This document shows positions 1,412 through 2,866 of a stretch of DNA of 4,677 bases, piece by piece. The stretch lies in IMG/VR virus record IMGVR_UViG_648276659_000011; one strand, written 5' to 3'. Positions within the stretch are counted from its first letter, which is position 1. Each line of letters starts with the position of its first letter. This stretch comes from a virus (taxonomy: Monodnaviria; Loebvirae; Hofneiviricota; Faserviricetes; Tubulavirales; Inoviridae). The translations under genes were made by a program, and so were the position numbers. Below the pieces are notes generated by a model that was given only the letters and a program-made list of their open reading frames with translations, searched no databases and was not told where the DNA came from.

Positions 1412-2866
1412 TTAGGCACTCAGAATAATACGGAGCGCAACAAATCCCCATATAATCAGAAATATGGTTTCTACGGCGCTTCTGTTCTGCTCAATTAACG
1501 GACAATGGGAGTCAATTCTGTACTGGTGATTAAACACGCTGAATTCAATAACGGGGCAGGATGCTGAACGAGAGCCGATGTTAAATTCGTTTGTAAAAGG
1601 CAACAAGTTAATAATTGGCGTTAAAATATCTCTTGCCGTTGGCGTTTCTTCAAGCTCAGGCTCTTTTACACCGGGATCTTCTCCCAAATCTATATTGCCA
1701 TTATTTCCAGTGTCAGATCCTGAGTTGTTATTAATGGTAATATCAATATTGACGTCAGCCCCTGCACTGTCAGATACAGGTGAAAGCATATCTAATAACG
1801 TTGGAGATAGCCTAAGTTCCGACATCGCAGAAGTTACTTCAGCCGGTGAAACCTCTTTAAACGGTAAGCCGTTATAATCGGCATTAACGGCAGCTTCAGA
1901 CCACAGCTCGTTAATCATGTCGGCAAGAAGTGCTGGCGATACACTAACACTATCAAGATACTCCAGATAATCAATCATGGACTCAATATTTCCGGCCTCC
2001 AGTACTTCCGTCATGGCTTTATATTTGGTATTGGTCCAGATAGTAAGCTCACTCTTTTCATCAATATCTTTTGCGGTGTAATCCTCTTTTTCAGGAACGG
2101 CGCAAATCGTCGAATATCCACCATTTGACTGATTAGTCGTTTTACAAGGCGTGTTGTGATACTGATATTGCTTTCCTGCTGTTAAATAAGCAACGCTGTA
2201 ATACATGGGAAGCCCTGCTACATTTTCATACATGGGAATACCTGCGGGAAATGAAGATGCGGCCGGGTTGCTATACAAGTGTGTAATCTCAGGTATTTCA
2301 TAAAATGAGGAAGGATAAGTAAACTTATAATTCTGTTCAGTAAAGGATACATCTCCATTACTGTTGACAACTTTATTCGTCACAGTGCGTTCAAAATTCG
2401 TTAGTGTTTCAGTATAAGTACGCGAGTTATAGTCATTAAGATAATTTCTGGCAATTTCAGTTGGATTATCACCATAGTAATAAATTAGCTCTTTCGAATC
2501 CTGATAATAATAAAGCGCATTATCTGGCGTGGAATATCCTGTTTCAACACCTACAACTGGAGAACCCGCATCCACATTATTACGACTAACATGAAGGATT
2601 ACCGGACTTAATTCCTGTGGTTCAAAATTAACGGTTATCGTCTTACTTTCACCACTTTGACCACTGTACGTTACTTCATATAAATTATCGGAAATCTTTT
2701 TACCGTTAGTCATTACCATTACCGAGCCGTCAGATGAACTCAAAGAAGACGGAACAAAAGATGATACAGCAGCAGCAATACCCGCCCACGTTGTGACCTT
2801 GCAAAAACTTTGACGGATTGCCGTCAATATAGAGATGTGTTGCCCGACCTTCGCCATCAGATCCAA
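1412..2866 (-). CDS. pIII-like adsorption / minor coat protein; N-terminal boundary uncertain
   Basis: 484-aa ORF with a Gly/Asn/Ser-rich linker ('NNNSGSDTGNNGNIDLGEDPG') and a C-terminal region 'CPVIEFSVF...ETIFLIIWGFVALRIIL' matching the pIII membrane-anchor pattern. The ORF-track start at 2866 is a TTG; the first ATG is at 2857. The first ~26 codons overlap the gII remnant in another frame. Confidence 0.8.
   Translation of the reverse strand: MDLMAKVGQHISILTAIRQSFCKVTTWAGIAAAVSSFVPSSLSSSDGSVMVMTNGKKISDNLYEVTYSGQSGESKTITVNFEPQELSPVILHVSRNNVDAGSPVVGVETGYSTPDNALYYYQDSKELIYYYGDNPTEIARNYLNDYNSRTYTETLTNFERTVTNKVVNSNGDVSFTEQNYKFTYPSSFYEIPEITHLYSNPAASSFPAGIPMYENVAGLPMYYSVAYLTAGKQYQYHNTPCKTTNQSNGGYSTICAVPEKEDYTAKDIDEKSELTIWTNTKYKAMTEVLEAGNIESMIDYLEYLDSVSVSPALLADMINELWSEAAVNADYNGLPFKEVSPAEVTSAMSELRLSPTLLDMLSPVSDSAGADVNIDITINNNSGSDTGNNGNIDLGEDPGVKEPELEETPTARDILTPIINLLPFTNEFNIGSRSASCPVIEFSVFNHQYRIDSHCPLIEQNRSAVETIFLIIWGFVALRIILSA

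Follow-up and report, generated by a model that had tools for sequence, protein, structure and literature searches.

This locus raises the question of whether a filamentous-phage pIII-like protein, whose N-terminus is encoded by rep DNA read in another frame, could have acquired a signal peptide by accident of the fusion, or whether the fusion has simply left a gene without its beginning. The stretch of DNA analysed (the window; 4,677 nucleotides in full) matches the E. coli MS 196-1 chromosome at 100% identity, in a place adjoining hipBA. Its minus strand carries filamentous (inovirus-type) prophage morphogenesis genes and its plus strand an HTH regulator together with two small ORFs; a megablast search of the window against the phage collection gave no match. 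The genes that bear on the question are the following.

83-1108, minus strand: intact gene for a pI/Zot-like assembly ATPase (PF05707, E=2.2e-26).
1112-1399, minus strand: intact pVI-like gene (DUF2523; PF10734, E=1.4e-19).
1412-2866, minus strand: pIII-like ORF of 484 aa with a TTG start and an in-frame ATG at 2857 (from the ORF listing).
1412-2792, minus strand: native pIII-like coding sequence, from Thr112 of a 570-aa protein to the stop, 459 codons.
2730-3023, minus strand: rep remnant ORF (rep'), 97 aa (Pfam PF05144 over residues 1-81, E=1.4e-23).

The intact pIII-like protein, a receptor-binding minor coat protein, matches phrog_3942 (E=2.9e-253). Homology to this pIII type throughout the body and the C-terminal anchor domain is present in the window ORF (hereafter pIII'), which is 96% identical overall to the first sequence of our alignment and near-identical to it across the 459 retained residues. 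The native part opens with an internal conserved segment, TWAGIAAAVSSFVPSSLSS, and ends with a C-terminal hydrophobic anchor. A Pfam search with pIII matched no family, and tblastn with pIII gave C-terminal-domain matches only, in uncultured inoviruses. An AlphaFold2 model of the intact 570-aa protein, built on a 7-sequence alignment, was discarded for topology at a mean pLDDT of 42.8, with values below 50 over residues 1-219.

The rep' ORF consists of native Rep codons 1-77 (2793-3023), followed by 20 codons of out-of-frame pIII DNA and a TGA at 2732-2730. It keeps only positions 1-83 of the 232 in the PF05144 profile; intact Rep, of 350 aa, also has PF05155, and the complete N- and C-terminal gpII/X domains (PF05144 plus PF05155) are not found in rep'. 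That both genes are broken is already known: RefSeq flags the two as pseudogenes, pIII' with the label 'missing N-terminus' and rep' with 'missing C-terminus'.

A search for the exact E. coli dif site in the window was negative, the copy at its end being hybrid in make-up and longer in the spacer. This dif-like site, at 4646-4674 on the prophage/hipA boundary, has the dif arms AACATAA and ACATTATGCGCACC (reverse strand) around a longer non-dif spacer. In strain DA33137, the opposite end of the array has an exact dif site (L003 6867-6894).

The junction was mapped by base-by-base comparison with the intact prophage copy of strain DA33137 (L003), which is 99.9% identical. The left match covers window positions 1-2793 and the right match 2793-4677, and the 2,069 bp between them in the intact copy (L003 11794-13862) are absent from the window. 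DA33137 is one of eight complete genomes (H2-H9), besides MS 196-1, in which the whole window is matched at 99.9%, in two pieces across about 6,745 bp.

2793, no strand: deletion junction with one shared base (1-bp microhomology) and 2,069 bp lost (comparison with L003).
2794-2866, minus strand: rep-gene DNA read as 24 pIII-frame codons (MDLMAKVGQHISILTAIRQSFCKV), with one further base that opens hybrid codon 25; includes the TTG at 2866-2864 and the ATG at 2857-2855.

The lost interval comprises Rep codons 78-350, the genes for the ssDNA-binding protein, an 83-aa membrane protein and the 77-aa major coat protein, a small 27-aa ORF, and pIII codons 1-111. With the latter went the start codon, the Shine-Dalgarno (SD) site, the whole Sec-type signal peptide (approximately residues 1-43) and 68 mature residues, that is, the native signal peptide and conserved residues 44-111 of 570. 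Rep codon 77 is joined to pIII codon 111/112 out of frame, the Rep' and pIII' frames differing by one base; hybrid codon 25 (aca, Thr) stands in place of Ala111, and the native sequence is read again from Thr112. A Rep'-pIII fusion through frameshifting was set aside, as neither a slippery site nor any other sign of it had come to light. The preliminary description had proposed a fusion by deletion with its boundary at 2787; the deletion is borne out, and the boundary is displaced by 6 nt, to 2793. The description was also right that the pIII frame stays open upstream in gII-remnant DNA, as its 24 codons there overlap the 2730-3023 ORF in another frame, and the N-terminus it quoted is the start of ORF 1412-2866, MDLMAKVGQHISILTAIRQSFCKVTTWAGIAAAVSSFVPSSLSS. 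The alternative it offered, a native pIII start lost in the deletion, agrees with the intact copies, which show that pIII codons 1-111 are missing.

We consider it very probable that one illegitimate deletion of 2,069 bp in a dif-integrated CUS-1/YpfPhi-like prophage left this region as its scar, and that the pIII gene here is an ordinary pseudogene. One such deletion would have joined rep to pIII out of frame and made pseudogenes of both. The 24 rep-derived codons would then be no functional N-terminus, a statement we make with the same high confidence as for the deletion-scar explanation as a whole. The open frame that they form upstream of the junction is a chance property of rep DNA. Every position in the intact phage at which the upstream side of a junction could fall was tried in turn, and the pIII phase was followed upstream from it; 35% of these positions gave 24 or more open codons, and 33% had an ATG among them as well. 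Direct reading of the intact rep gene showed the same alternative frame open for 35 codons.

The beginning of the native gene is seen in intact relatives. The intact pIII gene has 570 open codons. Its ATG (L003 12124) is 64 nt past the stop of the coat gene and is preceded by a GGAG SD sequence with a pairing energy of -6.4 kcal/mol, equal to that of the major coat gene. The relatives at 66% and 36% identity show the same arrangement: 58-59 nt separate the pIII start from a Coat_B-type gene and its terminator upstream, and the start codon, ATG or GTG, has an SD site in each. A database search gave homologues of full length (570-581 aa) with identities as low as 36%, and an exhaustive profile search yielded six more full-length representatives of 50%-identity clusters, aligned from profile positions 1-12. 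The N-terminal alignment of 12 family members, these six included, places a signal peptide in residues 1-43. Its n-region is basic (for example SRFKR or KRARR; YSWAKR in this phage), its hydrophobic core is about 15 residues long (LTVYSFIFSFLWVSF in this phage; LVYLLIIAIIF, with a 10-mer hydrophobicity of 3.41, in P0015), and its small-x-small cleavage site (SYS, AHA, AVA, SYA or CYS) is followed by NP or FVP. Judged from this layout, residues 1-43 of intact pIII look like a canonical, textbook Sec signal peptide. The segment retained after the junction, TWAGIAAAVSSFV, is a conserved Gly/Ala-rich internal segment of the mature protein in all 12 members, and its counterpart follows a Thr that never varies and a Trp that is replaced in only one of the 12, by Phe.

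Two further features of the intact gene were noted. The RefSeq model of intact pIII (WP_000741236.1) is 520 aa long and begins at a GTG (L003 11974) with no SD (+0.9); this start drops the conserved signal peptide and lies 150 nt downstream of the ATG with the GGAG SD (L003 12124). The GTG start is likely a mis-annotation that cuts off the signal peptide. In addition, intact relatives have an unannotated 27-aa hydrophobic ORF, MEIELWKLGSLLWGIVSAYVVILGLRG (L003 12055-12138, minus strand; deleted from the window), with its own SD (-6.3 kcal/mol) and overlapping the first 23 pIII codons. Between L003 and the 66% relative, its frame has 9 synonymous and 3 non-synonymous changes, versus 0 and 11 in the pIII frame there, and the 36%-identity relative (L006) has a 24-aa counterpart. 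This pattern suggests that the ORF is probably a pVII/pIX-like minor coat protein, dual-coded with the n-region of the pIII signal peptide.

The main competing explanation, which we regard as unlikely, is that of a chimeric signal peptide: translation would start at ATG 2857 or TTG 2866, the N-terminus would act as a weak Sec signal, and pIII' would be exported, with its C-terminal helix as an inner-membrane anchor. The formal n/h/c layout speaks for it. Basic residues followed by a hydrophobic stretch, as had been pointed out for this N-terminus, are found from ATG 2857: the positively charged n-region MAKVGQHISILTAIRQSFCK has K3, R15 and K20 and no acidic residue, and is followed by a moderately hydrophobic stretch of 15 residues, VTTWAGIAAAVSSFV, and then by PSSLSS/SDG, in which inspection of the sequence gives small residues at -3 and -1 (S-L-S or S-S-S). 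The best 10-mer hydrophobicity of the core equals that of MalE, the weakest of the reference signal peptides compared. The frame is open and has an ATG, and a 481-aa product from ATG 2857 was called by at least one pipeline (P0167).

Against these points, the n-region, at 20 residues, is much longer than is typical, and the hydrophobicity of the core lies at or below the bottom of the range of known signals. The best Kyte-Doolittle 10-mer and 12-mer of the chimera score 1.91 and 1.67, whereas the 12 reference signal peptides (eleven known signals and the coat protein leader of this phage) range over 1.92-3.08 and 1.99-3.07; the 12-mer is below all 12. Nor was a usable start with a ribosome-binding site found at the chimeric N-terminus. 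SD pairing is -1.4 kcal/mol for TTG 2866 and -3.1 kcal/mol for ATG 2857, versus -5.6 to -9.1 for the real genes of this phage, and both codons lie inside another translated ORF, rep', whose own SD is -5.6. Most gene callers take a downstream ATG, and the frame is open only to the extent that chance gives. The idea of an accidental chimeric signal peptide put forward in the preliminary description is also unsupported as to the origin of its core: the hydrophobic stretch is a segment internal to the mature protein in all homologues, and the native signal, some 70-110 residues further upstream, is wholly deleted. The chimera thus appears, from its composition and setting, formally signal-like yet marginal, and poorly sited for initiation. 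An accidental weak export signal is unlikely, and the chance that the chimera exports any protein would be small. Such export, if real, would serve no phage function, because the prophage is also without rep, gV and the major coat gene.

A further proposal goes beyond this, namely that the rep-derived leader completes a weak Sec signal and that a gut E. coli lineage with this deletion in tandem exports a shortened attachment protein together with intact pVI, the Zot-like pI and the secretin. We consider this very unlikely; if true, it would represent a first step towards domestication of phage assembly and adhesion parts rather than simple decay.

For the deletion-scar explanation, the expected fate of pIII' depends on where translation would begin.

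2711-2719, minus strand: in-frame ATGs at 2719 and 2713, which are codons 50 and 52 in the chimeric ORF.
3096-3124, minus strand: sigma-70-like promoter match upstream of rep', TTGAGA-17-TACATT with TG (consensus match only).

Counted from the rep' stop, ATG 2719 comes 10 nt and ATG 2713 16 nt further downstream; their SD pairing is -4.0 kcal/mol, and they are the most plausible translation (re)initiation sites of pIII'. Gene callers start at ATG 2719 in nine independent contigs, giving a product of 435 aa (MVMTNGKK...) with no hydrophobic leader and no signal peptide. If pIII' is translated at all, reinitiation at one of these two ATGs, just past the rep' stop, would be the likeliest route, and the signal-less product would not be expected to undergo Sec export. 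Weak initiation at ATG 2857 is possible and would provide at best a marginal signal peptide. The match at 3096-3124 is a candidate promoter for rep', pIII' and the downstream genes, by analogy with the position of rep in YpfPhi (PMC4266046).

Two terminator-like elements were noted in this region. In intact copies, the major coat gene is followed by a hairpin and T-run terminator (gggcgatgcaatatcgcccgtttt; L003 12140-12190, minus strand), which is gone from the window; pIII', pVI, Zot and secretin would therefore stand directly downstream of the rep promoter, with no terminator between. A terminator-like hairpin, TTGACGGCAATCCGTCAA followed by AGTTTTTG (window 2810-2827, minus strand; consensus match only), falls in the coding part of rep' that separates ATG 2857 from the junction, and is present in intact rep as well.

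A second alternative holds that the native signal peptide has been retained, with pIII starting at the ATG of 'MSGVATWAGIAAAVSSFVPSSLSS' and the deletion clipping only five codons. Intact copies indeed have an ATG (Met107, in MSGVATW) five codons upstream of the junction, with a hydrophobic stretch after it. This ATG has no SD (+2.2 kcal/mol) and is replaced by Ile in four more distant homologues (P0007, P0009, P0015 and P0016); Met107 is therefore no conserved start. Moreover, the 106 codons upstream of it are conserved as protein in relatives down to 36% identity and show a synonymous bias, and the canonical signal peptide is at residues 1-43. Between L003 and the 66% relative (L005), codons 24-111 differ by 34 synonymous versus 21 non-synonymous changes, mostly in third positions: 8 versus 6 in codons 24-50, and 26 versus 15 in codons 51-111, where 35 of the 52 base changes are third-position. 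The bias implies that the region is translated in the pIII frame, and the substitution pattern shows purifying selection on codons 24-111 in that frame. The aligned homologues show no native signal peptide with a start codon of its own downstream of 2787. A retained native signal peptide is refuted by these alignments, and we consider it extremely improbable.

That the deletion is a mis-join in one assembly is barely credible. The junction occurs in only one of 5,426 complete E. coli genomes, and a tandem prophage is a hard assembly case. Against this, 120 blocks of the public collection index the identical 97-aa rep' product, and both tandem copies in the complete genome carry the junction. 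It is also found, again in the hipBA context, in nine contigs of independent origin, drawn from isolates and human gut metagenomes, which show 0-2 differences per 4,677 bp.

The deletion allele is young and clonally inherited. In MS 196-1 the prophage is present as two tandem copies (L001 632-2243 and 7412-9023; L004 11780-12671), with the same junction in both, 2 differences in 3,897 bp and no intact prophage copy in the genome; IS1 (IS1A) truncates the secretin gene in the left copy. As a deletion with 1-bp microhomology is found in both copies, it must have had a single origin, and it then spread in one of three ways: by duplication, by gene conversion, or by integration of a deleted, miniphage-like genome. 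The pIII' ORF is intact over its 459 codons in every copy examined. The copies differ by only 0-2 bases per 4.7 kb, and this intactness is therefore uninformative on selection. Since rep, gV and the major coat gene, required for a virion-capable genome, have all been lost in both tandem copies, no virion is possible.

Other independent deletion variants were seen in databases: an in-frame fusion of Rep residues 1 to about 165 with the C-terminal 243 aa of pIII (P0014), pIII-secretin fusions (P0010 and P0017), and a Klebsiella pneumoniae pIII with a replaced C-terminus (P0169; 59 contigs). Internal deletions are a recurrent decay route of this prophage.

The locus carries little biological weight in itself, being an ordinary deletion scar in a defective prophage. 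Its value is for annotation, as the 484-aa or 481-aa 'protein' should not be read as an exported phage adhesin, and the comparison shows where the genuine signal peptide lies in pIII proteins of the CUS-1/YpfPhi type.

The intact relatives have the gene order of CUS-1 (E. coli O18:K1:H7) and YpfPhi (Yersinia pestis): rep, ssDNA-binding protein, small membrane proteins, major coat, pIII-like, DUF2523/pVI, Zot/pI, secretin/pIV and a divergent repressor. The same gene order, dif integration and tandem copies are described in a review of YpfPhi and CUS-1 (PMC4266046), and here too the prophage lies at dif adjoining hipBA in tandem copies. In CUS-1, the gene in the pIII position is puvA, which we tentatively equate with the window pIII by gene position and by the description in that review, the only paper that a literature search for puvA brought up. 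A K1 APEC strain has the identical pIII accession, WP_000741236.1. Unlike CUS-1 and YpfPhi, the copy in the window is without the 2,069 bp from the rep C-terminus to pIII codon 111 and can neither replicate nor form virions. The K1-type prophage matches only 69% of the window, the regulator/cargo module (window approximately 3047-4600) being different. In that K1-type (CUS-1-like) prophage the differing module is at L016 6764-8728; the morphogenesis genes are approximately 98.5% identical and the pIII protein is identical. This distribution of similarity points to a probable modular exchange of the immunity/cargo end beside hipA.

The intact homologue resembles the pIII of the Ff phages (M13/f1/fd) in its genome position, its N-terminal signal peptide of cleavable type and its C-terminal hydrophobic anchor. 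Its C-terminal ~190 residues are common to hundreds of inovirus proteins, one of them annotated as 'attachment protein'. Intact pIII is taken to work as Ff pIII does: it has a signal peptide, its N-terminal domains vary, and its C-terminal anchor domain is conserved; sequence similarity to the N-terminal domains of Ff pIII was not detectable, and there was no Pfam match. The native signal peptide is about 43 residues long, with an n-region overlapping a small ORF, versus 18 residues in Ff pIII, and the window has none. Finally, miniphages, or defective-interfering genomes with internal deletions, are known for the Ff filamentous phages (f1/M13). As in the f1/M13 miniphages, replication and coat genes have been removed here and the intergenic/regulatory region kept; unlike them, the deleted genome has become fixed as a chromosomal tandem prophage in a bacterial lineage.
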